Notes: generated by a model not told the origin, from the sequence alone. A stretch of 64,000 nucleotides of DNA from Marsupella aquatica (GCA_973895155.1 OZ316892.1:28420307-28484306); one strand, 5' to 3'; shown: positions 7,854 through 54,638, counted from the first letter of the stretch. Numbers and translations: made by a program.

Positions 7854-9715
7854 TCACTGGCCCTCATTGCCCCCCTGGGTAGATGCAACACCTCCTCCCC
7901 TACTCTTCCCCGGGGTGGCCCTTCCCGACGTTTGGCCCGAGGTTCCTTGCTTCCGTAATGTTGCCAAAGCCTGCCAAGCCCTGATGTACCCGTGACCGAT
8001 GGTGTCCTTCCACAATGTTGTCTCCTCATCACCCCGCAATTCGAGTGGCAAGACCTGGCCCATGGCCATGGGAGTTCCCGGGGTCACCGACCTAGGTGGC
8101 ATACCAGCGGTTCCCTGGCCAGACGTTGTGTTCCTTAGTGCTTTGCGGGTTGACTTCAACTTACTCTCCAGGCTCTTGCACTTCTCCTTGTCCTTCTTGG
8201 CCGCTTCCAACATTGGCCCGTAAGTCTTGGTTACTTCGATGACCACTGCATCAATGGCCTTGGCCAACATATCTGGCAAAGCAACGGGAGTAACACCGGG
8301 TGGACATGGCTTCTTCCTCTTCCCTAGACTCAGGGCGTCGGCTCTCTTGGCCCTTGTCTCATAAGCACTCACCTGGCCACGCAACTCTGAAATCTGCTTT
8401 TTGAGGGTATCCACACCCTTTTCGGCTTGCTTCATCGTTACCAGCTCCTTCCTCAAAGCCACTACTTCCTCGGCCTCCTTGGCCGTGGTGGATAGAGCTC
8501 CTTGCAAGTGGCCAACTTGGTCATAGGCTTGCTTCAGCAACCTACTCCTCTCTTGAATAGTCTCCTCCTTGGACAATATGACCTCCTTTAGTGCCTTGTG
8601 CCCGACTTGCAAGGTGGCCACCTTAGCATTGGCCCTACTCAGAGCCCACTTCATGGCTTTGCACAATTGCCAGCCCTCGTTAATAGCATCACGGTACTCT
8701 TGCAATTCCGCCAAGTATACCTTTGGAATGTCATACACAATGGGCTCCTCGGGATTACCAATCAAGGACTCCAACCACTGCATGGTAAACTCTTCATCCA
8801 TATCCTCCTCTTTGTCTGGTGCCCCCTCCATCACGGGCTCAGTGGCCAGCTCCTTGGTGGAATCCGTGGTCAAATTCTGCACGACGATGGTGGCAATCTT
8901 TCGTAAGACGGTGGGGAAGGAGGGCAATACTCCTTCCTCTGGTTCGGGAACTGAGATGAGCCCCTCCATCTTGTTCAAGAGAAATGACCCAAGAAAATGG
9001 ATGATTCCTCCAGGCTTGTGGCCTTTGGGATCTGCGGTCAGCATTTTCCTCAAACCAAACACCCACCATCCGTATGTGTGCTCCGGGTGCTGCTTGATGT
9101 CCAATGCAATGGCCAAGTGTTCCCCTGTAATTATACTTGATTGCACCCGGCTAAGTATCCGTTGATGGACCTTTCCAACAAAACCCCTGAGTGCTGGGTC
9201 CTTGAAGGATGCAAGAGAAATGTGTACCACAGAGGTAGTCTCCTTCACGTACATGGCCAGCTCTTCCAATGTGAGTGTCCCTGGTGGCTCCATGGGGTAG
9301 ATGTCAGGTCCTGGTTGTGCAACATCAGCAACCGAGTCAATTCGTCATGAGGGAGGGTGCGCTTGATGCATGCAAAGTACAATCCATCATCCCGTAAGTC
9401 CATCCCATCCTCAATCTTCCAATGCCTATCCACTGGAGCACGCATGTCCACTCGCATTAGATTGATAATCCCGGTGGATTCAAACAATTCACGGCTATCG
9501 TCCAGAAGCTTGGCCAATGTCTTGGGGTATGAACGTCGTTGAGTCCTTCGTGACATGGGTGCTTCACTGGTCCCTGACATTGTGGCCCTGGTTGCCAATT
9601 TCTCTTCTTCTTCTCTGGCTAGCTGCAAAGCGATGTACTCCCGGTAGGCTGCCTTGTACCTCCTAATGCGAGCGTTGGTGAACTCAGGTCTGTCTTGGGA
9701 TCTCATCCACTCCAC
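7854..9715 (-). CDS. Coiled-coil protein of unknown function inside the LTR-type segment (two overlapping ORFs, probably one frameshifted gene)
   Basis: ORFs 9245-9715 and 7854-9293 overlap; heptad-rich stretch (ALSRANAKVATLQ...LKKQISELRGQVSAYE) resembles accessory ORFs of large plant Gypsy elements. Confidence 0.5.
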
Positions 9716-10019
9716 TCCCCCTCAAGAGCACAACCGGTGACCGATTCTCGTTCCTCAATTCCCAGAGCTTGGCCTCGTGCGGCCCCCGTACCCAACCACG
9801 ATAAAATAAATCAGGTTCCCTCTCCAAGCCCTTGTCAATCCCCACTCCAGCTCACTCCACGGCCGCGCTCAGAATCACTCAAGGAAAATAGAGGTAGAAC
9901 ATGGCACAAAGAGGACGGTTGATGAGGAGAGAAAATGAGTTTCGGCAATGAGTGAGGAGCACAAAAAAAACTGAGAAAAAAAAGTTGGAAATGAGCACTT
10001 ATGTAGGCCGCTCCTCCCC

Positions 10020-10860: not shown

Positions 10861-11017
10861 CACTAACGCCCTTTGACCCGGCCCCCATACGCTAATACTA
10901 GGGCTGGTGATAAAAATGTAAAGCTAGATAATCCCCTGGCTCCTGCATGGAATGGCAATATCAGCCTATTCATTAAAAGTGTATTATTATTTGATTTATG
11001 CATGTACATTTGGGCAA

Positions 11018-11326
11018 TGAAAAGTGTACTTTTGGGCTTGGAAAAGTGTACATTTGGCCAATGAAAAGTGTACATTTGGGGATAAAAAAGTGTACAATTG
11101 GTCTAAAGAGTGTATATTTGGGCAATGAAAAGTGTACATTTGAGCATCAAAATATGTACATTTGGCTTAAAAAGTGTACATTTTAGACATTTGGTCTAGA
11201 AAGTGTACATTTGAGTGAAAAATGGATACATTTGGCTTAAAAAGTGTACATTTCAGTGCATTTAGTCTAGAAAGTGTAGCTTTGAGTGCAACAAAGAGTA
11301 CCTTTGGCCTAAAAAGTGTACATTTT
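11018..11326. repeat. Left subterminal array of ~21-22-bp units (AAAAGTGTACATTTGG)
   Basis: More than a dozen copies; same motif at 23842-23922 near the right TIR; near-palindromic core. Confidence 0.9.
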
Positions 11327-11546
11327 CCTGAAAACTTTTATTGTAATCATTTAAAATAAAGAAATTAATAAAAAATATTTTTAATTATGCAGAAAAAATA
11401 AACATTCATATTCATAATAATCAAAAGTTTAGAAAATGAGTAGATAGTCTACTAAGTAACTAAACACTCAATGGCATGGTCTCACAATATATATAATTCT
11501 TACATAAAAACTAATAACTATCTAATTATACCTTAGCTAGTGATAA

Positions 11547-14500
11547 CTAAGTGTACTTGTCCATCCTTTGGAGATAACTTTGGACAGTTTGTAGAACATT
11601 TCGAGGAATCTTCAAACCTATGCCAACCATGTTTTCTTCCTTCATTCCAGATTTAAAACCATACATTGCAGAATTTGCATACTGCCAATATTGAGTGTTC
11701 TCACCAAATCCTGGATCTCGTTCCCATGTCTTGGTGGACATGAAACAATTGAGATACCTAGCACTCTCACTCACATCAAGTTTAGAGTGTTTAGGCCTCC
11801 ACCATTCCACGGGGAACATTGGAGCATATTGTTGAGTCAAAGGAGGGTCTCTTGAAGATGCAATTGGGACTTCATGCTTAGGGTCCACCTGACCCAAAGC
11901 TCTCACCAACCAGAAATGACCTCCACCATTTTTCTTCTCCCAATCATCCTCGGGTCGAAGAAACACAAAGTTTCCTTCACAAATATCCTGGAGGAGAATC
12001 CACCGTCCTTGTTCTCTCTCAGCTCGAGATCCAACAAATGGTGCCGCTTGATCTTCCATCTCTTCCAAGACTTCATTTTGAAGAGTTTTCATCTCTGCAT
12101 TCTCCTCATCTTCACTTAGAGGACCCTGTTCGCATGCCGATTGGTTGACCTTGTAACCAGTGCCGTGGTTAGTCTTAGGCCAAAATCCATTTTTCAATGG
12201 AAATTGATTATTTCACTCCCCTTCCATTGCAAGCCCATTTGACAACAGCTCCACAATTCTTTCCCAATATTTAACAAGAGGAAATCTTTCCTTGTATGCT
12301 ATTGACGTCTCATCAATGCAACTCCTTCTCAAAAAATCAAGGTATTTGTTAAGGAATGGGATTATCTCTTCTGATTTTTTGTGTATGTCTCCTATGGATT
12401 TAGCTAAGGGTTGTCCACTGGGTAAAAAAAGAGAATTTGTTATTGGATCAGTTGCCCAAATGCACCTTCCGCCAACGGGAGCCCAAGCTTGCTTAACATG
12501 GGACTTATACTAAAATATTGGTACATTATCTCTCATAGAGAAAAGAAATGATACCGGTTTTGAGTGACCTTGAATATCTTTGACCTTAAAACTTTGAAGA
12601 TATTCTTTGTAAGATGCAACTTCTTGTATCAATCTTGGAACTGGATGAATGCTCTCACATTCCCAAACCTCTGCCATTAGTGCAGAAGGGTTGCAACTTC
12701 CTTGTGCTGAACTTGATATGATACCTTGGAAAATAGTGCATCAACATCTTCGTGCGTATGACCAACCATTAGAAAGGACATTTGAACAGTTTCAAATACT
12801 CCTCTACTCACAAGCTCCGAGCAAAATGCCATGACCGTTTGGTTTTTATTGTCCTTTGCTGAATTATCCATTTGCAATGTTAGGTGCCTTGGCAAGGGCA
12901 TGAACAACGGACTGCCCTTTTCACCACCCACATCCCCTCCATCATCCTCATCCTGTCGGGTTGGGATGGTCTCAGTCTGACTGTCAGTAGCTCCATCTTC
13001 AGAACCAATATACCTATTTACTTGAATATTCTTTGGTTCCAAATATCCCGACAAAAATGCATCAAAGTCAAGTAGGGCTTGAAAGAAAGGTCTGTGAGGT
13101 TCTCAATGCAAGCCATCAAGCATGTCACTTGTCTTGTCTCCATTGTACTCTTCAAGATCTCGAAGACCCTTAGCCAAGGATGTCACCGTGAAATCTGCAT
13201 CTTCTGGCCAAAGGCCAGTGACACTAAAGTGTGCATATACTCCTGGATCTCTCCCGTGGGTCAACATCCTCGTGAGAGCGATAGGTAGCGGCATTCCATG
13301 ACCCAAAAGTGATTTAGGAGTACTAACCATTTTTGGAATCCATGTCTTTGCTTGATCCATCTTGTTGTGAATAATGCAAAGATATTCTCCTGGATGTTGC
13401 TTGGCCATCACTCGATGAGCGTAGTAAACATATCTACGTGACATTTGCTCACGAAGATGTTGAGCTCTTTTTTCTTCAATTTTAGCACATTCTTTTTTCC
13501 TTCTCTCTCGCATCAAATTGTCTTTGTATTCACAACAAAGCGTACACTTGGCAAATGCGCCATCCTTGTGAAAACTGAAGTTTGCAAATGATGTGCTCCA
13601 TATCTTGTAGAGAGTGTTATTCGTTACAGGAGGAAGCACTTCTTCCTTCATCTTTGTTCTCACATCTTCCAAAATCTCTAACTTTTTGTAACACGCTGGA
13701 AGTCGATACTCAATGCTATCTGTCCCATGAGCCCCTCCATAAGGCATATGAGGCATTGGCTCTGCATTTTGAGTCAAAAATGCCTCTAGAAGAGCTCGCG
13801 CATGCAAGGTATTTGACTTTGTTTTCTTCAAGCCCGTGTTCCCATGGAACCCAATTTTGCAACCCTCCATGTATCTTCTCTTGTAATCATAATACTTGGT
13901 GTGACTAAAACCATGGATGGTTGCAAATGCATCTTTACAGATGACCATACCTTTGAGAACATGGTGTCCCTTATCACAAACATCATCCTCTCTGTAGTGG
14001 AAGAGGTTGAAAATGTGTGATGTTTTGGACTTGCTAGACATCCCGTGAAATTCCATTCTAACATCTTCTATATCTTCCCTTGGCATAATGAGACAACATT
14101 TATGCTTGCAACAATTTACTCTTTTGATCTCGTCAATTGCGGCTTCTGTTGTTTTTGAAACTGCCTTGGTTTGCAAGAGCCTCCTTTTCTTCTCAACAGG
14201 ATCAACTTGATTCCTCTTGTTGAAGTTATATGGCCTTTGACGACATCCGGATGCGGATCCAACCACAAGATCCGGATTCAGATCATCCCTATCCATTGAC
14301 TCCATATTCTCTGTACCTTCCACCAGAATGTTTGACAAAAATTTTCCAGTTGCTACTAGTTTTGTGTGATCAATTTGCCATCGAACCAAACTAATTACTC
14401 CTTTGTGAATGCTTGGAAAGTATTGTGATTCCATGACATCTTTCACAGCAACCCCTACATAGTCTTCTCCCAGGATTTCATCATCAACAGCCGCCGTTGC

Positions 14501-15338
14501 TTGAGGCACAATGATAGTCCCAGTGGCAACCTTACTCAATTGTCTTGAACCAATGTATAATTCGACCAACTCTGACATCCAGTTGGACCGTTGGTAATAA
14601 TCATAATGAGTTTTGGTCGATTTTGTTGATGGAGAATGTGAGACAAAACTCTCCTCAATTAAAACGTCGCCATCACCTTGCTTCTTAGAGGAAGACTTTC
14701 TAGCTTCATCAACATTCCAACCTTTTTTATGAACATCGGCCAAGTCCCAGAGAACCCATGAGTCTTTTGCCTCTTCAATTGTTTCAGCCCCATTGTGTAT
14801 GTAAGGTAAAGCCTTACTACCATGAATAACATCAGTGATTTTCACACTGATCCGAGACTCACCATGCAAGTAATATGTTGTGACATCGGTCCTTTGGATT
14901 TACCTTGAAAATAACTCCAAGGGCTACACAACACCCATCAATGAGCATTTCAACCTCGTCCCCTTGCCTTAGAGTGTTTGATGCATCCTCCATAACAATT
15001 GTAGGAGATTTATCCAAGTTATTATCTGGTTGAGTTGAACAACTACCAGTACTGATGCGTTTTTGGGAATCTGGAGTTATAGAGAGATACGCGCACAAGA
15101 TCTCCCAAATAACACATGAGTCAATGGCATCGAAAAGATTTTCTACCCTTGACAATGGAAATGGTAGTTTTTGAGTTGGCTCGAAAACCTTCTCCACGAG
15201 CACACCAATTCGATTATCTCCCAACAATATGTTGTGCACCCTATCCTGGGGGTTAATTTTCTGAACTGTCCCAGAACCGTCATCATATCCATCAATTGTC
15301 AAGGTCACATCATCACCTCTTGAAAACCTTCCAGTCAT
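11547..15338 (-). pseudogene. Sola-like transposase, disrupted
   Basis: ORF pieces 14859-15362, 13103-14869, 12677-13054 and 11547-12197 join into one protein: CCKHKC, FAKCTLC, IIHNKMDQ (expected first Asp appears as Asn), LQMDNSAKDNKN, FLMVGHTHEDVDALFS; frameshifts and stops present. Confidence 0.8.
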
Positions 15339-15477
15339 TCTCGGATTTAGTAACCTGCACAATTTTCAGAAAAACCATCACAAATCCGAATGACGAGAAT
15401 TTGAAGAGACTCACAATTATCCATACGGTCATTTGATTGCCATTCCGCGAATCCAAACGTTGACTCAACTATCACGC

Positions 15478-16275
15478 TTGGATTGGGGTGGTCCAAATCA
15501 AAACCACAAAGATTGTATTCTGAAGGTCAAATTTAAGCATAGCGCTTGAATTGGGATGGTCCGAATCCAAACCAACCTCTATCCAACACACCCTCTTAGA
15601 TTTGGATGGTCTGAATCCAAACCCAGATTGGATCCCAAAGGTCCCAATTCAACAAACGCGCTTGGATTGGGATGGTCCGAATCCAAACCCAGATTGTATT
15701 TCAAAGGTCCCAATTTAAGCATCGGGCTTGGATTCAGATGGTCCGAATCCAAAACCAAATTGTATTTCAAAGGTCCGAATCCAACCCACCATCTTGGATT
15801 CAGATGGTCCGAATCCAAACACAGATTGGATCCCGAAGGTCCCAATTCAACAAACCGGCTTGGATTGGGATGGTTCGAATCCAAACCCAGATTGTATTTC
15901 AAAGGTCCCAATTTAAGCATCGGGCTTGGATTCGGATGGTCCGAATCCAAAACCAAATTGTATTTCAAACGCCCCAATTCAACCATCGTGCTTGGATTGG
16001 GATGGTCCGAATCCAAACCGAGATTGGAGACCCAATTTAAGCATTGCACGCTTGGATTCAGATGGTCCAAATCCAACACACACTCTTGGATTCGGATGGT
16101 CCGAATCCAACACACCCTTTTGGATTCGGATGGTCCGAATTCAAACCAAGATTGGATTCTGATCAGATGGTCCCAATCCTAAAAAATGGATTGGATTCGG
16201 ATCATCCAAATCCAAACAACAATCTAGGATTGGGACCATTCCAATCCACACATCAAGTTTGGATTCAGATGGTCT
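15478..16275. repeat. Array of the 25-bp palindrome TTGGATTCGGA-TGG-TCCGAATCCAA (~33/66-bp period)
   Basis: 11-bp stem with 3-nt loop repeated with degenerate alternates; isolated copies at 17604-17628, 17943-17967, 17977-18001 and 19742-19766. Confidence 0.9.
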
Positions 16276-17033
16276 AACTTCACAATGAAGATTATGTTGA
16301 GATGGATATATTGAGATTGAGATCTCTTCCTAATCAAATTTAGACATTCCGGGTTTTTCGGAACATTGGGTAATTCGTGAAATAATAATTGGGAAGTCAC
16401 TAGAATGCAGAACAAAGTGAAAGGGTTCGTCTCTCTTCCCTAAGAACTCAAAATAAGCAAAGCGACTAAGACCATAACTCACCTTAGCAGTCTTGTTTTT
16501 CCAGTATGTCTCCAAGGTTGGCTCTGCTACCTCTAAATTGATGAATAAGCTCATATCAAACTGACTAAGAAAGCTATCAAAGCCACTTCAAGTCTAAACT
16601 CCATCAGAGAGAAGAGTTGAGGAGGAGTTGCGCAGACCTGGATGCCCAAGTGAAGATATGAAACTAAAACAACAATGATGTCTGTAGAGTACCTCTTATA
16701 CTCGTGGGTTGGTATGTTTGGCCCTGAATGTGCGATCCGATAAGGTTGAGGCAACACCGAGTATCGCAGTTAGAACAATCATCCAATCCTTTTTCAATCC
16801 ATTGTGTCAAACAATATAGCTAGCGTCCCACCCAAACTGATAGGACCAGATCCCTTCTCGGTCTCTATCCGTACAGAGATCATCCGTACAACCATCATCC
16901 GTACGCAAACAAGCCTTTCAAGAGGGGGTAAAGGGAGGACGAGGTCTTCCACAGACCTCATTGTTGTTTCGCTCTCAGTCGCTCCTCACTCTCGCTCCTT
17001 GCTCTTGCTCCTCGCTCTTGGCTGGCTGCCGCC

Positions 17034-17319
17034 CTCAGGGGGTTAACTTAGTGTATATTTTGGGGTACCACATGCGATCCTAGCCTAATATAAACACACC
17101 TATTTTATAATGGGAATATTCTAAAAATATTCTCTATTTTCAATACTAATGACTTATTTTCTTTATAAAAGGTATATATTAGAGAATATTCTATAAATAT
17201 AGGTTTATAATACCTTCTTTTGCTTCCTACACTTTTTAAAAATTTAGCTAATTTATATGAAAAATACATATTTTGGATCGCACGTGGTTCCTAAGATTGT
17301 TGATAGTCAACCCCCCGAG
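17034..17319. mobile_element. MITE with CTC(A/G)GGGG ends, 8-bp TSD
   Basis: TIR CTCAGGGGGTTAACT / AGTCAACCCCCCGAG; perfect TSD CTGCCGCC; AT-rich interior. Confidence 0.9.
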
Positions 17320-17640
17320 CTGCCGCCGCTATCCCTTGCCCTTGCCCTAATTGCCTTCTTGCCCTAATCTGCTGCAACGCCCTAGATCTTGCCCATCTTG
17401 ACGTGTCCTCAGTATATCCTGCCATGTGTCACTCCTAAAAATGGAAGTTGCCAAGAAAACCGTCATCGTCCTGCCGAAGAATTTGATGACTTGGATCTCT
17501 CCTCTGTCAGTGATCTTGTGGCCCTAGCGCTTGGGGATTCCCAAGAATTTCAATCACAAGTCCAAAGTAAGTTTTTGGAGGTTTATTCATGCATCTTAAG
17601 TTGTTGGATTCGGACCATCCGAATCCAAGTGGCTTGATTG

Positions 17641-17937
17641 CTCGGGGGTCTCACTATATGGGGACCTCCCCATCGCCTGCGACGTTTTTAGGCCTCAGAC
17701 CCCCTAAAATGTAAGAATTTTTTAAAAATTTTTAACCCCTATAAAGTTGGAATATTCTTGGAATATTCTAAAAATTGGATTAAAAAGACCCTAATATTCT
17801 TATAAGTCTCAAAATTGAATTTAAAAGACCCTATTGTTCTTCTACAAAAATTCTTAAGTCTTCCCTTAGAACCAATAAAATGACCCTATCCTTCGTCGCA
17901 TGTGATATGCCATTTTTGTGGAAGTGAAACCCCCGAG
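17641..17937. mobile_element. MITE with CTCGGGG ends, 8-bp TSD
   Basis: TIR CTCGGGGGTCTCAC / GTGAAACCCCCGAG; perfect TSD CTTGATTG. Confidence 0.9.
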
Positions 17938-18024
17938 CTTGATTGGATTCGGACCATCCAAATCTAACAGGGTTGATTGGATTCGGATGGTCCGAATCCA
18001 AGAGCCCTCAATCTCACTTTGACA

Positions 18025-21000
18025 ATGATTTTTTGAAACGAATTTCATGGATTTGAAGTCTAATATGAATTTACACTCTCCAATGCAGAGAGTGATTTGG
18101 TGAATACAACTCTCGCCATTTCAGAGGCAAACTGCGACGATGGGCTCATTTTGGAGGACTGCGATCCAGGATTTTGGTGGGGACTTGAGTTCTCGCGAGT
18201 AAACTTTCGCCTGAATTCATTTAACATTTGGGATCCAATGTTATGTGTCAAGATCAGGACAGGCAACAACCAAACATTGGTCATCGGACCCATGGTCTCT
18301 ATGGGAATGATAGGAAGAGGAATGAATTCTATAATTGTAGAGGTGTTGGACACGATGAGGTGGGCAAAGTTGCAGCTCCCGTCAAAGGCTTTCTCGGCCG
18401 AGTTCAATGTGGAATGGTATGCAAGTGGGGAATTAAGTGTGTTGTCGATGGGATTCTTTCCAAAATCCTACACAAAGGAGAAGATTATTGGAGGACTGAA
18501 CGGAATGCTTCCTTTGGACATTTTTTATGGGTTTCTTTATTTGAAACTCAACATTGTAAACAACCCATCAAAGTTCTCTCTTCCATCCACATGGACTCTT
18601 AACAATTTGCTTGAGAAAGCAGGTCTGGTGTCACCAGACTCAAATGTTTGGATCGCCAAGGCACTAGCCTTTGCACACACGCTTGACCTGGAAAAAGAAA
18701 ATCTATGGGTAGAGTCTTTGGTGAAGTTGAGGAAAAGTACACAACCACAGAACATAATTGAGTCTACGCCAGCCAAAGGAACTCCAACAACTACGACGGA
18801 GACAGCACAAACTAATACAGCAACAACCATGGATAGAGCGGCAGGGAAGCGAAAGCAGAGGGAGAGGAAGCTTCCGGTGGAGAAACCTACTTCAGTTGAG
18901 AAGAAGATCACGGCTCCAACTGAGAAGAAGAAGCTTCCAGCCGAGAAGAAGTCGAGGGAGAAGAAGAAACAAAAAACCGACACCGTAGTTGTGAATTCAA
19001 CTCCTGTAGATTTTTCATTACATGTTGAAGATGAGGGTGATAGGCCACATGCTCCAGAGGAGAAAGACGTCTTAGAAGGGAATGAAGTTCTTCAACAAAT
19101 GGAGCAGTACTATACTTTTGGGATAAACAAAAATTTTCTGATCCCAATTGAAAGTATTTTTGTTGCACCAGCGAGACTGTGCTATCGGATGATGAATTTT
19201 GATCATGTGCAAGACATTGCTGATTCCATGATCAAAACACCTGGGCATGAGCCACATGTCGTTGATTTGATTCCTTTTAACGTCGAGCGAAGAAAGGTAC
19301 TCCACTTTGAGAATACAGAGTCGGACCGGAAGGATTTTTTGGCCGGAGTGAAAAAGGGCGAGGTCCAATTTCTAGCCGTTAGTGGTCAGCACTCTGCGAG
19401 AGCTGCAAGATGGATTCATGATTGGGCAACAAAGGATGCCAAGCTCACCCAGTTGGCCAAGAAGTTAGAATTCAGGAAATCCAGAATATTGTCTGATCGC
19501 ACACCGTCTTCAATTCTTGTTGAGCACTCCATGAGATTGAACGCCATCAATAGCACGATGGTGTTTCAGTCTTGCTTTAAAGATACAGTTGTCCATGCGA
19601 GGCGGCAGTTTGTTGAATGTGGAAATCCAAACAAACCAAAACATGGCGACAACAAAACAAATGCTCAAGACAACCAAAACTTTCAGGTAAGAAATGTGAT
19701 TACTTTGTGTGCATTTCTCTACCATAGAGAGTAATTCTATTTTGGATTCAGATGGTCTCAATCCAACACGATTTGTCAAAGAGTATTGGAACTTTTGGAA
19801 TGTTTAGTATGAGTTTTGTTTTTGATTGACCATCCGAATCCAAAACTATTATCGCACATTAGAATCCTTTTTTTCCAACCCTAACTTGAGTTGGGGATAA
19901 CTGACTAGCTTTCCTTTTGGATTGTAGGATTGGTTGGCTCTGGCAAGAATGACTATGGGCAGGAAGGACTTGCGAAATGTATACTGGCTACTTTTTGCGG
20001 ACAACGATCTTTTTGAGTTGTGGCGGTTAGTCTGTGAGATGTGGTTGCATGGGAAACTTCCTGATGGAGCTGGGTGGAAGGAAATAACAAGTCCAAAAAA
20101 GCAATTACCACTGCCATGTTTCGTCCCTTTGATGGTGAGTTGATCTCACAGAAAGATATCACAAAAATCCTGACACAAGTGAAGTCAGGAAAGGCATTGC
20201 TGAAGAAAGATGCCACAAATAAATCTGACATACCCTCAATAGAGGAGCTTGCAAAGGTGTGAAAAAAGTGAGGAAGCTCAAGTCTCTCATTGAAGAGTAC
20301 TACTTCGGCAAGGATCCAAGGAATTTCCTGTCGGATACCGACTAGAAGAAAGTAGTAGAGGTTCTGCAGCTGCCATTGTTGAGTGTTGATGCAAAATTCA
20401 GTAGATGCAGAAGAGCGGCTGGTGAAGTTTTTTTGTCAAATCTGTTGAAGCCAAATCATACCAGGGAGAGTGCAATCTTGCCAATAGCTCTGGTGATGCG
20501 CCTTGATGACATTTATTGCAAGAAGTTTGGCGGAGGGACACATTCTCGGAGCCAACCGTGGGTCACGTTCTTTAGTGACAATCTAATAAAAACAGTTGAT
20601 CCACCAGCAATAGAAGAATCATCTCCAACGTGCTCACTTGCCATTGTTGACTTCAGTCGAGATCACCAGAAGCTGTGGATGGAAGCAGAAGTTTTGGTCT
20701 TTCTGCAATACATTGTGGAGCTACCACAAAATGTTACAATCGTTGTAGCCATAACTGTTCATCCGGGGCCTCTTGCAATGAATGTCCTAAGCTCACTTCA
20801 AAAATTGGGACAAGAGAAATCTCTCACCATTCACATTGAGTATGGGAGTTATTCTCAAGAGGATCAACCGCACCCGCTTGATTCGTGTTGGGGAGGCAGA
20901 ATTGAAGAAGTTATATTTGCAGGAATTTCTTGAGATGAAAATGTCAATTGGAATGATGTTTTCAAACCCAATCACCCAAAGCCAAAATTCTTTTTTGGTT

Positions 21001-23583
21001 CAAAAGATACTGATTTTGAGGTCACCAAGATTGACATTGGGAAGGCGAAGGTTGACACAGACGACGTGTCAAAACCCGGAGATCTAAAAATGATGCTGAC
21101 CCCAGAAGAGGCGACCAAGGTTTTGCACATGGCCCCTCGATTTGAGATAGTTGGTGCTCATGGTGGTTGGGTGAATCCACATGCCAAACCCACGCGGATG
21201 ATACAGAGGATTATTGAATCCTTGTTAGAAGCTGGAGACTTGATTCTTGATTTTTTCTCGGGTGGTCAAGTGATGAAGACAACATGCTTGGTGCAACGCG
21301 AATGCTTTGTTTATTGTGACTCTCAAGATGAGAGACACTTTGTGGAAGCGTATGCTTCATTCCTTTGCGAGAGGGTCCCCTCAATCAAGGAAAATTGGGA
21401 TCCTCGTGGTGGGAGTTCTAGGCATTGGAAACCCACTATTGCGGATGTTTCTGCCGGACATGAATCAGCTGATAATTCCGAAGAAGTGGGCGCTAAGTCA
21501 GTCAAAGATGATGGAGCATTAGAGGTGGCGTATGCAAAGAATTTGGATGACCGTGTAGGTCAAAGTGAAAGCATAGAACCCTACGATGTTGATGATAACG
21601 TTGGTCTTGCACCACGCCCTTCATCAGGTGCAGATGACGTCCCTTTGGAACCCTATGAAGTTGAGGTTGATGACAACTTGGACAAGGATGGTCTCAATCC
21701 AAATGTGGTGCAACGAGAAACAGACGGAATTGGAGAACCGATTGACATTGATACATTTGAAAATCGTTCGTCAACCAATTTGGTCACTGACGGTGGAGAC
21801 AGGCGGGTCAATTTGAATGAAGCTGACACCCAAGAATTGATTCCCGGAACCACTTTTGAAGTACGTGAGATTCCCATGACCCCAGAAGCCCGTGCATCAG
21901 CGGCTGTTGACAACCAGGCAGGTGCTTCAATTTGTCCTGACACACTCTTTTCAGCTTCTGATGACAAATTGGTTTTTGTTCGTTCACACTCGGGAAGTCC
22001 AGTTGTCCTTCCTCTCTCAAAGAAAAAAGGGAATAGAGTTGGATCAACCGGATGGAGGTCACTTGAACGTGATGCACGATGTTATGTGTGGAAAAGTGGG
22101 CCAAATAGAGGCCAAGAAGTTTCATTGGATGCTGCTCCATCGATTCTTAACAGGAAGGAGTATAAGAGAGGAGAATTGGGATTGATAACTCCTGTTTGGA
22201 CGTAACCTTATTGGGTAGAACAAAGTACTTCAGATGTCAATTTTGAAATCCAAGAGGAGATGGGTGTTGACATTATTGATGAATACATATCTCTTTTTTC
22301 AGACTGAGATCAAACCGTCTGACTTTCCATTTTTTCATACCAATCTAAAATACTTCTCGGTCTCACAGAATGCGGTCAGCAATTAGAGCCTCAATATCCA
22401 CCTACGCTCTTTGGGGCTTCTAAAAATGGTATGTCAGTAGGTTTTCTTTGTTGTTAGTCATTGTCTTGTATTTTTGGACTGAGACAATCTCAGTCCAAAG
22501 TTCAAATTTGGTTTTCTTTCTAAGAGTTGTATTTGTTGCACTTGCAGAATCGAGACCTTGTCCCATCAAGCGGAAGTTGCTGATTTTGGATCTTAACAAA
22601 ATACTTTGGGATTCACTTGCATTCCAAAGCAAGGGCAAATCCAGAAACATTGTGACCCCAAATGGAGTGCATTGGGATAGATCAAATGGATCTAGTCGCA
22701 TGTATATAGAGAGGCCAGGGCTCCATGAGTTTCTAAAGTTGGGTTTTGACCGGTTTGACGTTGCAATTTGGACATGTGCTGGTATGCCGCGGACAGTGAA
22801 AATGTTGAACATGATGTTCACTGTTGAGGAGCGGTTGAAACTGAAGTTTGTATTCACACAGGTGGAAGCCTTTGACACAGGCATTCAAAGGCGTGACATT
22901 ACAAATGGAAAGGCAAATGTGCTATTGAAGGATTTTCGGGTGGTATGGAGTGCATTTGGAAATCTATATGATGAAACAACACACTCCTTGTGGATGACTC
23001 CCCCTTGAAGGCATTTGCCAACCCAGACATGACCGGACTATTTCCAGTGCCCTACACGCATGCCAATCGTGGAGACAATTTTCTTCTAACAATTCTTTGG
23101 CCATGTCTTGAGAAACTGTCACATGCAAGTGACATTTGTTGTTATCTTCTCCTAAACTCTCCAAAGTGGTCTCTATTGCACATTAAGAGAGACAAGGCAA
23201 AAAATGAGATTACTTATGATCAACTTAGTAAGAGATGTGCTAAAAAAATTTGGAAGTCATAGTATAGGCATAGTGTGCTAGACCTCAATAGCAATGAGAT
23301 TCCTTGGGCTGTGAAGCACCATATATGTAGCTTACGTCCTGAGGTGGAACTTGACGATGCATTTGTCACCTCACTTGCTAGATCATTTGTAGGATGGGAA
23401 TATTCAGGTCTGTATAGAGAAAATCCCAGACACTTTTTGCGGGAGATTATAGCAGTTAGGAACAACACCACCAAATTTCATCTCCCTGAAGATAAAGGGA
23501 GTTGCAACCGTGACATTAGGGTAGATAGTAAAGGAGACAAGGGCACGTGCTCAAATAAATATTGTAAGGAGCACTTTGTTTAG
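18025..23583 (+). pseudogene. Transposon cargo: ParB/Srx-like + beta-class DNA amino-methyltransferase-like + FCP1/NIF HAD phosphatase fusion, degenerate
   Basis: Predicted exons 18025-19686, 19928-22428, 22548-23583 (GTAAGA..TAG and GTATGT..CAG introns, phases compatible). Motifs: IPIESIFV...DHVQDIADSM...AVSGQHSARAA (19381); HAKPTRMIQRIIESLLEAGDLILDFFSGG (G at 21234); LLILDLNKIL, ERPGLHEFL, FDVAIWT, KDF, LLVDDSPLK. Several stops and frameshifts. Confidence 0.7.
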
Positions 23584-26562
23584 AGATCTGACTCATGTTA
23601 AGCCCATTAGATAGTAAAAATGGGTGTCAGCCCTGGATATTCATTGTAAGTTTGGACACAATTGTATATAATTATTTCACACATTATCAATCAATGGTCC
23701 TTGCCTAGGCTTCTTTGTGCGGAAATGTTTTTACAAGTATGATCTCTATCCCATGGTTCTTTGTGAACTAATAAGTAATATAATACTATTATAATTAATA
23801 TAATATAATATATTAATATAATACTAATAAGATTTGGCCTATAAAGTGTACATTTAGGTATAAAAAAGTGTACATTTGGGCTTCTTAAAGTGTACATTTG
23901 GGGACATAAAAGTGTACATTTCAGGACTGATTTGTGAACAAAAGAAAATACATTTTTAATGAATAGGCTGATCAATAGGGCACATGCCTTGCCCTGCACC
24001 GGCTAGCGGCCAATCCCCCCTACTCTGAGGCGTGGCCGATAACTAAAATGAAGAGGACCTGGAAAAAATATCACTACTTCCCTCATCTATATTGCGCATA
24101 AACTATTGTTGGCAAGGTTGTAAGAGAACAAAAGAAAAAAACTTGACACAAATCTATTTATTTACATGTGTGCATCACTACTACCCTTTAAAATCATTCC
24201 TTGGGACCATTGGCCTCGTCACATTTAGTGAAATACTTTTAAATTTGTGTTGAAGAACATTATGGTTATTTTAATCCAATTTTGAGAATTATAAGAATCA
24301 TAGGGTTTTTTAAAATCAAATATTAAGTTAGGGGTAAAAAACTTCATAAAAAAAACTTTATTGACTTAACAACTTTAGGGTGTTTATTCCCCCAAAACTT
24401 TGAGCGTGATATGAGACACCCCTTGGATTGAGGCCCCCGAGCCAACAGCAACTGGGAAAGTTTTCTGAGCTTTGTGGTTTCAGATTATAATAATAACCCA
24501 AATATTGTTGTTAGTCATTGTCTTGTATTTTTGGACTGAGACAATCTCAGTCCAAAGTTCAAATTTGGTTTTCTTTCTAAGAGTTGTATTTGTTGCACTT
24601 GCAGAATCGAGACCTTGTCCCATCAAGCGGAAGTTGCTGATTTTGGATCTTAACAAAATACTTTGGGATTCACTTGCATTCCAAAGCAAGGGCAAATCCA
24701 GAAACATTGTGACCCCAAATGGAGTGCATTGGGATAGATCAAATGGATCTAGTCGCATGTATATAGAGAGGCCAGGGCTCCATGAGTTTCTAAAGTTGGG
24801 TTTTGACCGGTTTGACGTTGCAATTTGGACATGTGCTGGTATGCCGCGGACAGTGAAAATGTTGAACATGATGTTCACTGTTGAGGAGCGGTTGAAACTG
24901 AAGTTTGTATTCACACAGGTGGAAGCCTTTGACACAGGCATTCAAAGGCGTGACATTACAAATGGAAAGGCAAATGTGCTATTGAAGGATTTTCGGGTGG
25001 TATGGAGTGCATTTGGAAATCTATATGATGAAACAACACACTCCTTGTGGATGACTCCCCCTTGAAGGCATTTGCCAACCCAGACATGACCGGACTATTT
25101 CCAGTGCCCTACACGCATGCCAATCGTGGAGACAATTTTCTTCTAACAATTCTTTGGCCATGTCTTGAGAAACTGTCACATGCAAGTGACATTTGTTGTT
25201 ATCTTCTCCTAAACTCTCCAAAGTGGTCTCTATTGCACATTAAGAGAGACAAGGCAAAAAATGAGATTACTTATGATCAACTTAGTAAGAGATGTGCTAA
25301 AAAAATTTGGAAGTCATAGTATAGGCATAGTGTGCTAGACCTCAATAGCAATGAGATTCCTTGGGCTGTGAAGCACCATATATGTAGCTTACGTCCTGAG
25401 GTGGAACTTGACGATGCATTTGTCACCTCACTTGCTAGATCATTTGTAGGATGGGAATATTCAGGTCTGTATAGAGAAAATCCCAGACACTTTTTGCGGG
25501 AGATTATAGCAGTTAGGAACAACACCACCAAATTTCATCTCCCTGAAGATAAAGGGAGTTGCAACCGTGACATTAGGGTAGATAGTAAAGGAGACAAGGG
25601 CACGTGCTCAAATAAATATTGTAAGGAGCACTTTGTTTAGAGATCTGACTCATGTTAAGCCCATTAGATAGTAAAAATGGGTGTCAGCCCTGGATATTCA
25701 TTGTAAGTTTGGACACAATTGTATATAATTATTTCACACATTATCAATCAATGGTCCTTGCCTAGGCTTCTTTGTGCGGAAATGTTTTTACAAGTATGAT
25801 CTCTATCCCATGGTTCTTTGTGAACTAATAAGTAATATAATACTATTATAATTAATATAATATAATATATTAATATAATACTAATAAGATTTGGCCTATA
25901 AAGTGTACATTTAGGTATAAAAAAGTGTACATTTGGGCTTCTTAAAGTGTACATTTGGGGACATAAAAGTGTACATTTCAGGACTGATTTGTGAACAAAA
26001 GAAAATACATTTTTAATGAATAGGCTGATCAATAGGGCACATGCCTTGCCCTGCACCGGCTAGCGGCCAATCCCCCCTACTCTGAGGCGTGGCCGATAAC
26101 TAAAATGAAGAGGACCTGGAAAAAATATCACTACTTCCCTCATCTATATTGCGCATAAACTATTGTTGGCAAGGTTGTAAGAGAACAAAAGAAAAAAACT
26201 TGACACAAATCTATTTATTTACATGTGTGCATCACTACTACCCTTTAAAATCATTCCTTGGGACCATTGGCCTCGTCACATTTAGTGAAATACTTTTAAA
26301 TTTGTGTTGAAGAACATTATGGTTATTTTAATCCAATTTTGAGAATTATAAGAATCATAGGGTTTTTTAAAATCAAATATTAAGTTAGGGGTAAAAAACT
26401 TCATAAAAAAAAACTTTATTGACTTAACAACTTTAGGGTGTTTATTCCCCCAAAACTTTGAGCGTGATATGAGACACCCCTTGGATTGAGGCCCCCGAGC
26501 CAACAGCAACTGGGAAAGTTTTCTGAGCTTTGTGGTTTCAGATTATAATAATAACCCAAATA
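22448..26562. repeat. Near-identical tandem duplication (22448-24504 and 24505-26562)
   Basis: ORF set repeated at a 2057-bp offset; the only difference I noticed is one extra A in a poly-A run. Confidence 0.95.
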
Positions 26563-29919: not shown

Positions 29920-32900
29920 ATGCAACAGCTTCCTCCTCCTCCAGCTGGCGATGGATCTATTGTCCCAACACTTGCCAGTACAGTTTGGACCGTAGTAGCC
30001 AGAGAGAAAGCACGCGATGTCCCAGTTGGCGTCTGGTACTTTATGGTCAGCAGTGCTTTGATCGGGGCGTTGATCGGGATCGTCGTACGATGTCGTCGAA
30101 ACATATCTCGCCCCTCAGGACTCGAAGTGCATGATCTTGAGGTACTTTCCCTGGACTGCATAATCCCCAATAGATGGTGGCCTTCGTACCACTTCGCCGG
30201 CAAGGTTCTCTCTATTTGCATACCTTCTCTATCAAGCCGTAATGTTTGCCTGTCCGTTTCTTCCGGAGTCATGAATGGCTTCAACGTCCTGGCACCCTCT
30301 CCACTGATATTGAGTTAGGTGGAACAGAGTTGGATGCATTCGATTGCCTTACTGTGTTTGTGATTGGTTTTCTTCTCAGGTGAATGACTCGTTAATCGAG
30401 TTGCACAGGCCTTCCGGAATTCCTAGCGTTCAAGTGTTGTTTTTCCATGGGCTCCCATTTGAGAAGTCCTCAAGGGTGCACTTATCGACGTGGGAGTGCG
30501 GGGATGGATCCTACAATCTTTGGCCCCAAACCTGGTTGGTGGACGAGTTTCCGGGCGCACATGTGTTTGTTGTGCAGTACAGCCAGGGCCTGAGCAAAGA
30601 TTCTCGGAAGACGATTGACATGAAAATTATTGGGGAAAACCTGCTATCAGATCTGATGCAAGGAAAGATAGGTCAGGTGCAAGGTTGCCCAGTTGTGTTA
30701 GTAGGCCACTCTGTGGGGGGGCTGGTAATAAAGCAATTATGCTGGGAAGCACATGAAACACTTAGTCTGAGTAGGGAGTCTAGGAATACCAGGGTTCAAC
30801 TGCAGAACTTTCTAAATAGAATTACAGGGATTTTTTATTACGCCACACCTCACCATGGAATTCCTCACATAGTCAAAGCAGAAGACCTCCTGGATAGCCC
30901 TTTGTTCAAGTACTTTGAAACTCTAAGTACGCAGGCAGAGCGGCTAAATTATAATTTCAGTCGTTTGTGTATTCGAAATTGGAAATGGCAAATCAAAGGA
31001 CTCGCAGAAAATCTTCCAGTAAGATCGGTACAAATTCAATTGCCTCCTTATCTGATTGTTGCGATCTATCTTTCCTTCTGTTTAGTAAAATAGAATTAGT
31101 CTGTTGCATGAAAACCGACAATCATTTGATCCATGAAACGATGAGCTTGCTAGTAGTTCATACACTTAAAACTACAATGCTTAGCTTTTTCAGTGAAGCA
31201 GCTATCTGATTTGATTTATTTTGTGGATTTATCCTTTTTCGCAATATGAAATTTTATCTCTGTATGCAAAGCGCCTGTCAAATCTACAGATATAATTTTC
31301 TTTCGTTGGCTTGCTCACACATGTAGATGGGTGTGACGGAATCGTCTGAACCTTCTCAATGACGGAGTGGATTGTCCTTGTTTTGTGCGCAGGGTGTGTT
31401 TCGAAATATTGTTGTAGTCCCAGAAGCATGTGCCAGCGAAGGAGAGTTGAATGTGGAGGAGACAGCAGACCACTTCTCCATATCGAGACCGCCATCTAAA
31501 ACGTCAAGACGGTTCAATGCCGTGACAGGACTCCTTCACAACGCAATCGACAGCGCGAAGGTATATTTCGTCCTCCCAAAAGGCCCGACAAGTTTTGTTT
31601 GTTCAGATTATTAACTGAACTACCACATCAAGTGTGACATTTCCATTCTATTGAATAGGCTGTTAGCTTTTATCCAAAATTCCAGAGTCATGCTCAGGTC
31701 TAAGAGTTGCTGATGACACTGTTGTTGAAATTTCAGGAAGATGCTTCCCCCAAAAATTATCAGTATGTCTCTGAGAAAATTCAGGGTATTGATTCTCCAG
31801 TACAAGACGTGAAAGAGAAGATGAAGACTGTTAGAAGTTTGTGCTTGACTGGGATGGGAGGAATAGGAAAGACTACCCTCGCTAAGGTAGTCTTCAACGA
31901 GTTGGCCCCAAAATTTGAGTACACTTGTTTTGTATCTGATGTTAAATCGATCGAAGGGAATGAGGAAGCTTTGAAGAAAGAAGTTTGGAAACGTGTGCAC
32001 CACAATGGTAAGAAAGTTGAAAGAGAAAGCGATTGGTCTAAGTTACGGGGGACAGAATTACTTCTGGTGTTCGATGACATATCAACAGAGCGAGACACAA
32101 ATGTTTTGTTGGAATTAGCTAATGGTCTGTCTTCGGAATCTCGCTTCATTGCAACTTCTCGTGATCATCGCCTTCTTTTCAATCCGTATGAAGTGCCTCT
32201 CCTCAATGCAGATTATGCTCACCAGCTTTTTGTGAGCCATGCATTTCCAGACCAAGTTACTGTTCCTGATAACTTGGCTAGTCTTGTGGGAGAAATTGTG
32301 GAAAAATGTGGAGGGCTGCCTCTAACATTGGAAGTTGTTGGGAAATATTTGAGAGGGAGACCAGACGAGGAGGATTGGAAGCAATCTCTAGATGCGCTTC
32401 GGAAAGCAGATGTTATTACTGGGTTTAACGAGGGGTTGTGGGAGAAGTTGAAAGTCAGCTACAATGGTCTTCAGAGAGATTGAGAAGCAAATATTTTTGG
32501 ATTGTACAACCTTCTTTAGCAGGCACTACTTTACTTTGCGGGACGCTAAAATGGCATGGAGGGGAGCTTATGATGTGAGAGAAAATCTAGCTTGGCGAAC
32601 CTTGGTGGAAAGGTCGCTTGTCTACGACGTTGAAGACGATGATTTCATCGAGGTGCATGAACAGCTCCGAAGTTTGGGACGGAAAATAGCATCGGAGTCC
32701 AATGACAAGCGCAGGGTGTGGGAGACGCAGAAAGGTTTGAAGCTGTTACAAAGCCCCACTGAATCAGAATACAGGTAACGTCTAAGCTGGTGATATCATC
32801 ATTCCTCTGTCATGCACGAATACTTGCACTTGTCCAATGGATACTCTCGCTTTCAAAATTTGTAAGAGTATTACTTTCGATGTGTACAAGTATTTTAAAA

Positions 32901-34906
32901 GCGAGTCTGGAAGATAAGTGGTTTCCAAGAAATCTTGTCCTACTCGACTGCCGAGGGCTGCAATTGTTTGACCCCGCCCGCCAAAGCCGTTTGGCCATTT
33001 TGGAACTGTACGAGATCGATGCCGAGTATCTGCCCAACTCTATTGGACAGCTGTCAGGTCTTCGAGTCTTCAAACTTTGTAAAGCTCGAAGACTGCGCAG
33101 CTTACCAGATGCCGTTGGACAGTTGTCGCAATTGGAGCGTCTCTCGTTGCTGCAGTGGGAGAGCCTGGAGACCTTGCCTGAGACATTCGGCCAATTGTCA
33201 AACTTGAAGTACCTGAATCTCCCGAAATGTTACCGTCTACGTACGCTTCCCGATTCCTTTGGAAACCTGTCCGCATTACACCAGCTTGATGGTGCTGTAA
33301 ATTGCAGACCCTGCCTGAATCTTTCGGGCGACTCTGTAAGTTGACTCACCTTGAAATCGAAGATTGCGACGAATTTCACTCCCTTCCCGAAACTTTCGGG
33401 TCTCTATCTGCTTTAGTCAAGTTGATCCTCTGGAATTGTTACAAGCTCGAATCACTACCTGATTCATTTGGAAATCTAGCAACACTCAGCGATCTTTGCC
33501 TCAGCCACTGTGGTCTGCAAAGCCTGCCCGAATCGTTCGGAAATCTGATCGCACTAAGCCGTCTTGAGCTCTGTAGCTATGGCTTGCGAAACCTGCCCGA
33601 GTCCTTAGGAAATCTCATCGCACTACACCATCTAACCTTATATAAATGTAGAGATCTTCACTCCCTCCCAGAGTCCTTCGGAAATCTCATCGCACTAAGC
33701 CATCTAACCTTAGAGAAATGTACAAATCTTCAAACTCTCCCCGAGTCCTTGGGCCAACTGGCGAAGCTCGAATATTTGAAGATGTCAAAGGCTGACGAGC
33801 TGGAGAGGCTACCCAATTCCTTGGCGGAATTTAATGCTCTTGGTCATCTAATTATTGAATCTACATCGATCAAGAGCATTCCTGACTACATGAGGACTCT
33901 ACCGTCGTTGCGAACTCTGGAGCTCCGGCAACTTCCCGATGTGAAGGAATTGCCTCCTTGGCTAGGAGAAACTGGTCAGATCTCTTTAGCATGCTCAGAA
34001 AAGATATTTCAGGTTCGGGAGCGACAGTTCTTTTTAATGGGGGATAAAAGGATGGAAAGTGACTCAGATGCGGTCAAGTATGTACACAGGTCATTTATGC
34101 GGAAGGTGAGGAACTCAGACTATGCAGGAGCCTTGGCAGCTTTGTCGGCAAGCACTCTTGGACTGCCCCTATTGGAGGGGTTATTCCTGCAAGAGAGGGG
34201 CGTCTTGAAACGTATGATGGGAGATCTTCCTGGAGCTTTGGAAGACCTTACAGCCGCTTTGGAAATATGTTCCACGGTAGAGGACGGGGACTGCTACATC
34301 TATGATTGCTGGAAGCACAGGGGTTATGCGAATTTCTTGATGGAGAATCTAAAAAGTGCAGAAATCGATGGTACAATTGCTCTGACGTTGCAGCTTGAAT
34401 ACCGCAAGAAAGAGAGTTACTATTTGAGTCCAAGTTTGGGCGAGGAACAAGTGACGTATATGCATTTCAAACTGGAGGGATGGAAAGAAATGGTCGAGCA
34501 TGACGAATTTATGATGTCATTGCATTCTCAAGTAGTGCAGAAGGTGATGGCGGCAGGTACTGCAGACGGTGACTTCCAAACGGCCTTGGCAAGCTTTGGC
34601 ATAATCAATCCAAGAGTGTTACCGTATGAGAGTCGGGCATTCTTCTTACAAGAAACGGGCATTCTGAAACGAATGGCGGGCGATTTGGGAGGAGCTTTCG
34701 AAGATCTAACGACAGCCTTGGAAATGTCGGGAGATGATTATGATTGCTGGAACCATTTTTAGGGTTTTGTAAAATACTTATTAGGCGATGTAGAGGGAGC
34801 GCGACTGGACGCCAAAAGAGCTGTGACCGTGAGTTACCAAAAAGTTGACGGAAATGGGGAATATCTCGGAGGGACTCCCGTGACATATTTGGAGTTCCAA
34901 CTTTAA
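29920..34906 (+). pseudogene. TM - alpha/beta-hydrolase - NB-ARC - LRR - TPR immune receptor (hydrolase-NLR), disrupted
   Basis: Exons 29920-30141, 30380-31027, 31393-31560, 31737-32774, then ~32900-34906. FFHGL, WPQTWL, GHSVGG nucleophile, ATPHHG, DHFSISRP; P-loop GMGGIGKTT, LLVFDD, CGGLPL, VHE; LPESFG LRRs; two TPR-like modules. Frameshifts ~32480 and ~33290, in-frame TAG at 34760. Confidence 0.85.
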
Positions 34907-38500: not shown

Positions 38501-39124
38501 CCTGTTTGAGTTTCCATGACTTGATCCGCTCCCTGCCCCAACACCATGACTCCCAGGAAAAAATGAGGAACACACATTAGAATTCCTTTATGGAATACTT
38601 TTCAATAACACTGGTCGTCTAGTTTCTTCCCTCATCCCCCTGTGAAATGTTTCCAACGTTGGCTTACCAAAGGTTTTACTTTTTGGCATTTGCTTCAGCC
38701 GCTGAACACTTTGGAGACTGCAAAAATCTTTGTCATTTTCCCCACTTAGTGCCTTCTTTGTCTTTCCAAATCCAGTCTTCATGAATTCATGAGACCGTGT
38801 CCCATACATCCGAATAGGCATTGAACCTTCCACATTACTCCCCAATTTGTCCTTTGTTGGTGACAAAGGAGATACAACTTGACGTCCAGGGGGACCAATA
38901 ATCTCCAAGGAGTCAGAGGAGCTCCCTGACCTCTCCATACCACCGACCAATGATTTCTTCCCACTAATTGCAAGTCGTAAAGGAGTACTTTTTAACTTGC
39001 TCATAGGGGTGGGGGGTGGCATATCTAAAATAGTAGTTATTCCAGGGATATATGGGCCAACCACTATGCAGGGGCCATCCGGCAATGAAACATCATCAGA
39101 TACTCCATCTGAATAATTAATCAT
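35579..39124 (-). pseudogene. Sola-like transposase (spliced, frameshifted)
   Basis: YCCQCHC, FSACADC, VIDGMDQKKTRLPH, LQLDNTSRENKNN, FLLVGHTHDQIDQMFS; same motif order as the 11547-15338 transposase. Confidence 0.85.
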
Positions 39125-39241
39125 CTGATTTGTAACATGCCGCCATTGGAAAAACTAATGCAAATTGACAAGAAACTCAAAAAATCAGTAAAATCTAACA
39201 AATCTCCTCAAAATAATGACCAAGAGTCATGAATAAACAAG

Positions 39242-44074: not shown

Positions 44075-44377
44075 CTCGGGGTCCTCACTTCTTTTCTTTC
44101 GACCCATCACGCGCAAATTAGTATAGGGTTTTTTATTGGGTTTAGTAAAATACTTTTAAATTTTTGATGAAGAACATTAGGGTTATTTTAATCCAATTTT
44201 GAGAATTCCAAGAATCATAGGGTTTTTTTAAATCAAATTTGAGAATATTCTTGGAATATTCCATTAAGTTATGGGTAAAAAATACTAAAAAAACTTTATT
44301 AACTTAACTTTTAGGGTGTTTATTCCCCCAAAACTTCAAGTATGATATGAGACACCCATTGGATTGAGGCCCCCGAG
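44075..44377. mobile_element. Uninterrupted CTCGGGG-type MITE (303 bp)
   Basis: TIR CTCGGGGTCCTCA / TGAGGCCCCCGAG; flanks AGGAGGAT/GGGAGGAT (7/8). Confidence 0.9.
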
Positions 44378-54502: not shown

Positions 54503-54638
54503 TTAGCACAATTTTGGGCATTCACGACAAAGTTTGATAGAATATTATCAACAAAATGCAGAACATTGTAATTGACATACAATGAATAAACATATAATCG
54601 TTAAGGTGACCTTTACAAAATTGTGTAAACCCTAATCT

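Follow-up and report, generated by a model that had tools for sequence, protein, structure and literature searches.

Organization of the element and its cargo gene

The window analysed here is a 64,000-nucleotide stretch of repeat-rich eukaryotic DNA from the liverwort Marsupella aquatica (GCA_973895155.1, OZ316892.1:28420307-28484306; positions are counted from its first letter), and it contains an element of about 13 kb (10960–23972) that carries, between terminal inverted repeats (TIRs), a transposase gene and, divergently oriented on the plus strand, a long cargo gene. The initial annotation had read region 18025-23583 of this cargo gene as one fusion of ParB-like, DNA amino-methyltransferase-like and FCP1-phosphatase parts. 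The features of the element are as follows.

10956..10959, no strand: left copy of the apparent 4-bp target duplication, CAAT
10960..10985, plus: left TIR, 26 bp
11000..11330, plus: left subterminal 22-bp repeats, eight cores GTGTACA[TA]T, candidate transposase sites
11547..15365, minus: decayed gene for a DUF7869 transposase, pointing away from the cargo gene (PF25273, E 9.1e-31 on 12680-13102)
15478..16283, no strand: array of 22 palindrome copies between the two genes, spacing mostly 32/34 bp
17386..17566, plus: probable first coding exon, missed by the initial annotation, with an open frame to a donor (A followed by GTAAGT) whose phase is that of the acceptor at 18088
17567..18088, plus: probable intron 0, with phase-matched donor (17567) and acceptor (18088), holding three palindromes and a miniature inverted-repeat transposable element (MITE)
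18136..18576, plus: conserved N-terminal domain, a PH-like barrel by weak prediction
19093..19569, plus: ParB/Srx-like domain (predicted fold), SGQHS at 19381
19687..19927, plus: intron 1, phase 0, GT..AG, with two palindromes
19928..20540, plus: conserved helical region between the ParB and methylase domains, interrupted in this copy by two frameshifts and one stop
20541..21392, plus: predicted beta-class amino-methyltransferase fold, with DFSR (20649), motif X NPHAKP and motif I DFFSGG
21393..22304, plus: acidic linker followed by a small, conserved C-terminal domain with an EYGS-like motif at its end
22287..22368, plus: probable non-coding segment (intron without intact donor, or 3' untranslated region), containing the stops 22305/22320 and, at 22299, a palindrome half-site
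22369..22428, plus: probable 60-nt mini-exon, exon-like in composition, lying between an AG and a GT and sharing the frame of the NIF exon
22429..22547, plus: intron 2, phase 1, GT..AG, with a perfect palindrome at 22474
22548..23583, plus: NIF / HAD-family phosphatase-like exon, reading DLNKI at 22589, with a frameshift near 22976 and a stop at 23260
23830..23925, plus: right subterminal repeats, four cores, oriented as at the left end
23947..23972, minus: right TIR, 26 bp, followed by CAAT

The TIRs match at 25 of 26 bp, a score reached by none of 5000 shuffles, and the cargo gene lies between them, as had been claimed; a 5-bp duplication (CAATA) is equally compatible with the flanks of this single insertion, but would leave the TIRs asymmetric. 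Variant contigs occur by the thousands over all 30 bins of the region in all four public sequencing runs, from two studies, showing that the whole unit, cargo gene and transposase included, is a multicopy family. A joint 10955->26030, carried by a single contig in run X1 and another in X3 and by none in X2 or X4, corresponds to the empty site once a tandem copy of the right end (described below) is counted.

The transposase frame is broken by a stop (13103) and by a frameshift (near 12683), both of which differ in other copies. Its superfamily is likely Sola-like, and the element likely a Sola-type DNA transposon, an assignment drawn from the DUF7869 match and the layout; the available parts of PMC4455052, PMC5751038, PMC10294476, PMC12885004 and 10.1101/2021.09.26.461848 gave no help in classing it.

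The cargo gene, whose summed model comes to 1733 codons, is real but decayed in this copy. The fragments, both canonical introns and the motifs of the initial annotation are in place (SGQHS at 19381, VDFSR with its Asp at 20649, NPHAKP at 21174, DFFSGG at 21249), but the continuous frame that it drew into the NIF exon is not established, because two of the four stops between methylase and NIF exon (20931, 22203, 22305 and 22320), namely 22305 and 22320, are probably not decayed codons. Their reading as simple C-to-T decay was rejected on account of an intron-like composition of 22287-22368 (GC 0.35 and T 0.38, against 0.42-0.45 and 0.25-0.28 in the exons), the palindrome half-site, and nine homologue clusters ending there. 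The whole frame additionally needs three frameshift repairs (near 20071, 20257 and 22976) and contains TAG stops at 20343 and 23260. At the frameshifts, some or all contigs of other copies have one-base insertions in each of the four runs, and the stops at 20343, 20931 and 22203 fall within stretches that homologues read through.

The start proposed at ATG 18025 was rejected, the change being private to this copy (G in the others), and the gene probably begins in the upstream exon ending at 17566. Intron 1 is conserved, all six exon-1 homologues entering it at one identical residue; a GT-AG intron is present there in a metagenome locus (L001) too, and two homologues, P0001 and P0078, read across it. 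No intron-skipping joint was found among the 15 joints listed, of 363, in contigs of the public runs.

A predicted beta-class methylase fold with an altered motif IV

A search over 1.8 billion representatives returned 61 relatives of the methylase domain, and a structure model based on 47 sequences (predicted local distance difference test, pLDDT, 84.8) argues strongly for the beta-class amino-methyltransferase fold that had been proposed. The model matches CcrM (E 1.6e-8; Z 18.4, root-mean-square deviation (rmsd) 3.3, 216 residues aligned) as well as MboII, RsrI, PvuII and the rotifer N4CMT (Z 15.2), the first unrelated fold following at Z 5.4, and a profile match to M.RsrI reaches E 6e-9. 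The predicted domain is a permuted Rossmann fold with motif IV ahead of X and I, and thus resembles CcrM, M.RsrI, M1.MboII and M.PvuII in fold and motif order, but has DFxR for DPPY/SPPY and FSGG for FxGSG, in a spliced, multi-domain eukaryotic gene.

Motif IV was placed by a collinear structural match running from model residue 93 to D129 (20649), with which a low-confidence global profile alignment agrees. It reads D(F/L)xx, mostly DFxR, with Asp in 29 of 31 rows and Arg at the fourth place in 24 of 31; the two prolines of [DSN]PP[YF] occur in none of the 31 rows, and neither DPPY/SPPY nor the stacking Tyr is ever seen. Motif X retains its Lys (31/32) and motif I its Asp (25/29), Phe (28/29) and Gly (26/28), and the residues of the S-adenosylmethionine (SAM) pocket are conserved across two liverwort classes. 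The earlier caveat that VDFSR stands at the DPPY position is therefore borne out in a stronger form than it was given, the motif being missing family-wide and not through decay of this copy. As motif IV is altered throughout the family and X and I are kept, the canonical active site is lost family-wide and the cofactor pocket seems to be retained, which makes the "DNA-marking" half of the role first proposed (a DNA-marking or anti-silencing machine) doubtful, while self-recognition or anti-silencing fits better.

It is possible, on the unlikely side, that the methylase instead works through a non-canonical D(F/L)xR motif IV and, guided by the ParB domain at palindromes described below, writes N4-methylcytosine (4mC) or N6-methyladenine (6mA) on its own element, which is the DNA-marking role of the initial annotation and also what has been put forward for the algal ParB-methylase proteins discussed below. 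Such a writer would be in keeping with a full-length fold aligned to CcrM over 216 residues, with the retained Asp, Arg and SAM-pocket residues, and with the bacterial-origin 4mC writers reported in Marchantia (10.1101/2021.02.12.428880, partial text) and rotifers (PMC8885841, partial text). Against it stands the lack of both the Pro and the stacking Tyr in every row: changing SPPY to APPA abolishes the activity of N4CMT (PMC8885841), and CcrM makes its contacts through Asp31 and Pro32 (PMC10406627), so that the Asp/Pro contacts and Tyr stacking of CcrM and N4CMT could not be made in an equal manner.

In a tree of 20 family and 3 bacterial rows (27 of the 47 alignment rows, with coverage under 55%, were dropped) the family separates from the bacterial rows, with long branches and no donor that could be named. 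A kinship with MpDN4MT1 by motif was rejected, its SPPY not being present here. MpDN4MT1a/b and N4CMT resemble the family in being eukaryotic proteins whose beta-class methylase fold came by horizontal transfer, but are, in the available parts of their reports, host genes with TSPPY/SPPY and demonstrated activity, the former without extra domains and the latter with a chromodomain.

A ParB-like fold and an N-terminal domain predicted from structure

The exon-1 model was built from 10 sequences (mean pLDDT 63, higher in two folded parts) and gives moderate support to the ParB/Srx fold proposed for 19093-19569. An independent structure aligner places only ParB/Srx structures at ranks 1-6 (KorB, Z 8.1, rmsd 2.8, 94 residues; PadC, Z 7.9), a Z of about 8 being borderline by the tool's own grading, and the first eleven Foldseek matches, at E > 0.001, all belong to ParB, PadC, Noc or sulfiredoxin. 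The arginine of the ParB GxxR motif is nucleotide-binding. Here, this position is Ser (SGQHS) in 13 of 13 rows, so that the motif of the ParB CTPase clamp is lacking, and the domain departs in this, and in giving no significant helix-turn-helix (HTH) match in shallow profiles, from ParB, KorB, PadC, Noc and sulfiredoxin, whose fold it is predicted to share.

By language-model features the ParB part is closest to fungal DUF3723 (0.96), which is likewise transposon cargo, a conserved gene of Starship elements with no known function (PMC9156397, partial text). Comparing profiles with three or four ParB proteins of plasmids yielded no ParB match. The N-terminal domain (model residues 13-159) has a weak PH-like best match (Z 5.6) and no match in the Atlas. 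The weak PH-like matches of 18136-18576 include the SANTA domain of M18BP1 (Z 5.1), inseparable from other PH folds.

A palindrome confined to the element

The element contains an imperfect palindrome of 25 bp, with 11-bp arms and a 3-bp spacer, that the initial annotation had missed. Scored with a model trained on the 22-copy array, at a threshold of 12 bits, it occurs 31 times within the 13.0-kb element and not once in the other 48.9 kb of the window; outside the training array there are nine copies, against 0.08 expected, and exact half-sites occur twice more inside the element (one at 22299) and nowhere outside. The nine lie in the transposase gene (two), intron 0 (three, at 17604, 17943 and 17977), intron 1 (two), the acidic linker (one) and intron 2 (one, the perfect copy at 22474), and all three GT-AG introns thus carry the palindrome. 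Three copies stand in open coding frames (12956-12980 and 14272-14296 in transposase inserts, 21678-21702 in the acidic linker), which suggests a pressure to retain sites throughout the element.

The subterminal repeat has a different distribution, with eight cores at the left end, four at the right and none elsewhere. An internal palindrome and a separate repeat found only at both ends point to two motif sets for two proteins, by inference the palindromes for the accessory protein encoded by the cargo gene and the end repeats for the transposase.

This distribution also bears on the idea of a structural transposition helper, which would act as a clamp or bridge to pair the ends or to hold the excised DNA and would have no epigenetic role. 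Catalytic positions are changed in all three enzyme-like domains (GQHS, DFxR and DLNKI), and the ParB part is nearest by features to the Starship cargo DUF3723 (PMC9156397), both of which would suit such a helper. The palindromes, however, are internal (array, introns, coding linkers) while the ends carry a different repeat, and the conservation of the SAM pocket would be left unexplained; we regard the helper as unlikely.

The phosphatase-like exon and its link to the methylase

The call of a NIF family domain holds, PF03031 scoring 26.1 bits above a cut-off of 21.8 (E 7.8e-6). FCP1/SCP phosphatases of the C-terminal domain (CTD) of RNA polymerase II (Pol II) have DxDxT as motif I. The exon shares with FCP1/SCP and UBLCP1 the NIF match, the WT motif, the Lys and the DD, but reads DLNKI for DxDxT (in one copy). 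Its best matches are TIGR02245 (HAD-IIID, E 2.1e-9, below cut-off) and UBLCP1 (3shq, E 0.0028); all NCBIfam scores are far under their cut-offs (TIGR02250, 13.9 bits against 135). A role as canonical Pol II CTD phosphatase, which had been suggested, is thus unlikely, and a canonical FCP1 assignment was rejected, DLNKI replacing the motif and UBLCP1 being closer.

Of the three-domain fusion first described, the ParB-methylase part is found in one homologue open reading frame (ORF; P0078, 1009 aa), and the NIF link is where the evidence divides. Nine homologue clusters that reach EYGS end 3-21 residues later, at the position of TGA 22305 (counting matches at most 60 residues from an end, with three inner-motif rows dropped); of 79 proteins compared, none has an alignment spanning the methylase-NIF junction; this copy lacks an intact donor between exon 2 and the mini-exon; and, as weak evidence, none of 85 candidates is a longer protein holding the NIF exon. 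On the other side, motif I of the NIF exon has no in-frame Met ahead of it, a canonical intron and, before that, an in-frame mini-exon with its own acceptor lie upstream of the exon, most of the EYGS-ending homologues are contig-based gene calls, which would stop inside an intron, and the Riccia model KAL3690045.1, itself a prediction, joins a distant methylase (25% identity) to NIF. On balance we lean slightly towards the exon being joined by splicing in one or more forms of the transcript.

The same endings, including those of P0001 and P0078, and the missing donor are what would be expected if the cargo were a captured passenger or host gene without function for the element, and the phosphatase exon a separate neighbour gene. 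The whole gene is, however, multicopy along with the transposase, its relatives in Calypogeia (at least four) and Riccia (three) are dispersed and mostly partial models, the divergent arrangement recurs in Ectocarpus (PMC12477816, partial text), and the NIF exon lacks a start before its first motif and is joined to a methylase in the Riccia model, all of which makes a passenger very unlikely.

Distribution of homologues and relation to known systems

Of 28 homologues looked up, 7 have an organism name, in every case that of a liverwort, Calypogeia fissa or Riccia sorocarpa, and none algal. Of the homologues cited above, P0001 is annotated as eukaryotic and P0078 is intron-free. One relative (L001, too short for the NIF exon) was found in 211 metagenome stretches, against none in 44 candidate stretches of prokaryote genomes, none in 134 viral contigs, none in phages, and only weak matches (E >= 0.06) in plasmids.

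The architecture had been thought undescribed. Its core is published: the Ectocarpus element Sola1-1_Ec32 carries an accessory gene encoding a ParB-like domain and an N4C/N6A-type methylase, proposed to bind and modify its own element, and ParB-methylase genes are said to occur in green and red algae too (PMC12477816, partial text). The two elements are alike in being large TIR elements with a 4-bp target-site duplication and an accessory gene inside the TIRs, opposite the transposase strand, in which ParB precedes the methylase. Sola1-1_Ec32 differs in size (21.5 kb with 282-bp TIRs, against 13 kb with 26-bp TIRs here), and the liverwort element adds an N-terminal PH-like domain, a C-terminal domain, the NIF exon and a defined internal palindrome, belongs to a land-plant lineage and has motif IV replaced family-wide; the comparison is one of layout. 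The literature searches brought up no account of such an element in liverworts, or of the phosphatase exon, a weak negative, as they also missed the Ectocarpus paper. The gene is thus best described as a liverwort variant of a known ParB-methylase accessory gene, new in its altered motif IV, extra domains and candidate binding site. In a source whose available part does not treat the liverwort family (PMC4738411), certain eukaryotic methylases are traced to ParB-terminase loci of phages, and DIRS1 elements are described as carrying inactive methylases.

VANC, an anti-silencing protein, offers a functional likeness only, being an element-encoded accessory protein of VANDAL transposons, whose tandem target motifs are repeated in non-coding parts (PMC5735166, partial text); its activity is demonstrated, whereas that of the liverwort protein is proposed here, and no homology between them is known.

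Proposed function of the accessory protein

Taken together, these observations lead us to a proposal to which we attach an even chance: the cargo is a decayed accessory gene of a likely Sola-type transposon, and its protein a self-recognition factor that keeps the element open or protected, not a writer of standard 4mC/6mA marks. ParB recognises parS. In a comparable manner, and as VANC does with its tandem targets, the accessory protein would use the 25-bp palindromes to recognise the element that encodes it; once bound, it would keep the element accessible or shielded from host methylation, with the methylase fold serving as a SAM-bound module that binds DNA or reads bases.

Several results weigh against this proposal. 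ParB has no sequence match in Pfam, NCBIfam, PHROGs, PADLOC and PDB-sequence searches, the exon-1 model has no Foldseek match at E <= 0.001, and no significant profile match to an HTH follows the ParB domain, in shallow profiles that included the helical region. The transposase or a host factor could bind the palindromes, and the kept motif-IV Asp (29/31) and SAM pocket are compatible with an active enzyme.

A broader scheme may be envisaged, which we consider doubtful: a parS-like self-marking system in liverwort transposons, predating the split of the main classes, in which a ParB-type clamp would load on palindromes particular to the element and an amino-methylase of new D(F/L)xR chemistry, fused to a HAD phosphatase-like domain, would write or read a mark other than 5-methylcytosine that shields the element from silencing by the host. 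If true, land plants would have their first case of DNA amino-methylation encoded by a transposon, and the system would be a programmable epigenetic writer that acts locally. The mechanism by which eukaryotic transposons defend themselves against host methylation is known in very few cases (VANC), and binding and modification of its own element by the algal ParB-methylase is a prediction in PMC12477816 (partial text). The liverwort family offers material for a test, with an element-confined 25-bp candidate site, uninterrupted homologue ORFs and a tractable lineage with a bacterial-type 4mC writer, and the family-wide loss of DPPY beside a kept SAM pocket raises a question of enzymology, that of a pseudo-enzyme reader versus a new catalytic motif.

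Further features of the element and its surroundings

Two further features complete the list.

17641..17937, no strand: nested MITE-like insertion with an 8-bp duplication CTTGATTG; 64 contigs of run X2 are loose-ended at both limits
24505..26562, plus: tandem copy of 22448-24504 (NIF exon, right TIR and flank), 2057 bp, 99.95% identical

The tandem (22448-26562) is either a recent duplication or an assembly artefact. The MITE-like family is high-copy, with copies in the window at 17641-17937, 24224-24441, 44120-44377 and 6412-6482, the first of which split a palindrome-bearing intron.

Left of the element, coiled-coil-rich ORFs without family match (7854-9721, minus) adjoin GC-rich repeats at 10-11 kb, apparently the insertion target. 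A second, distant DUF7869 transposase (35579-39154, minus; 44-47% identity over short stretches) has within the window neither a ParB-methylase match nor a palindrome near it, and is followed by a Copia-like fragment (39.4-40.6 kb). At 30314-34762 (plus), fragments of alpha/beta-hydrolase, NB-ARC, LRR and TPR type form a hydrolase-type nucleotide-binding leucine-rich-repeat gene with the TPR part C-terminal; hydrolase-NB-ARC-LRR genes are a class typical of liverworts. Finally, at 46255-57745, a hAT transposase (47411-50422, plus) faces RING-finger (52490-54502, minus) and protein-kinase (54639-56303, minus) ORFs; GC-rich repeat arrays whose arms are inverted (47075-47430 / 56517-56869) enclose this block, which is possibly another cargo-carrying element.

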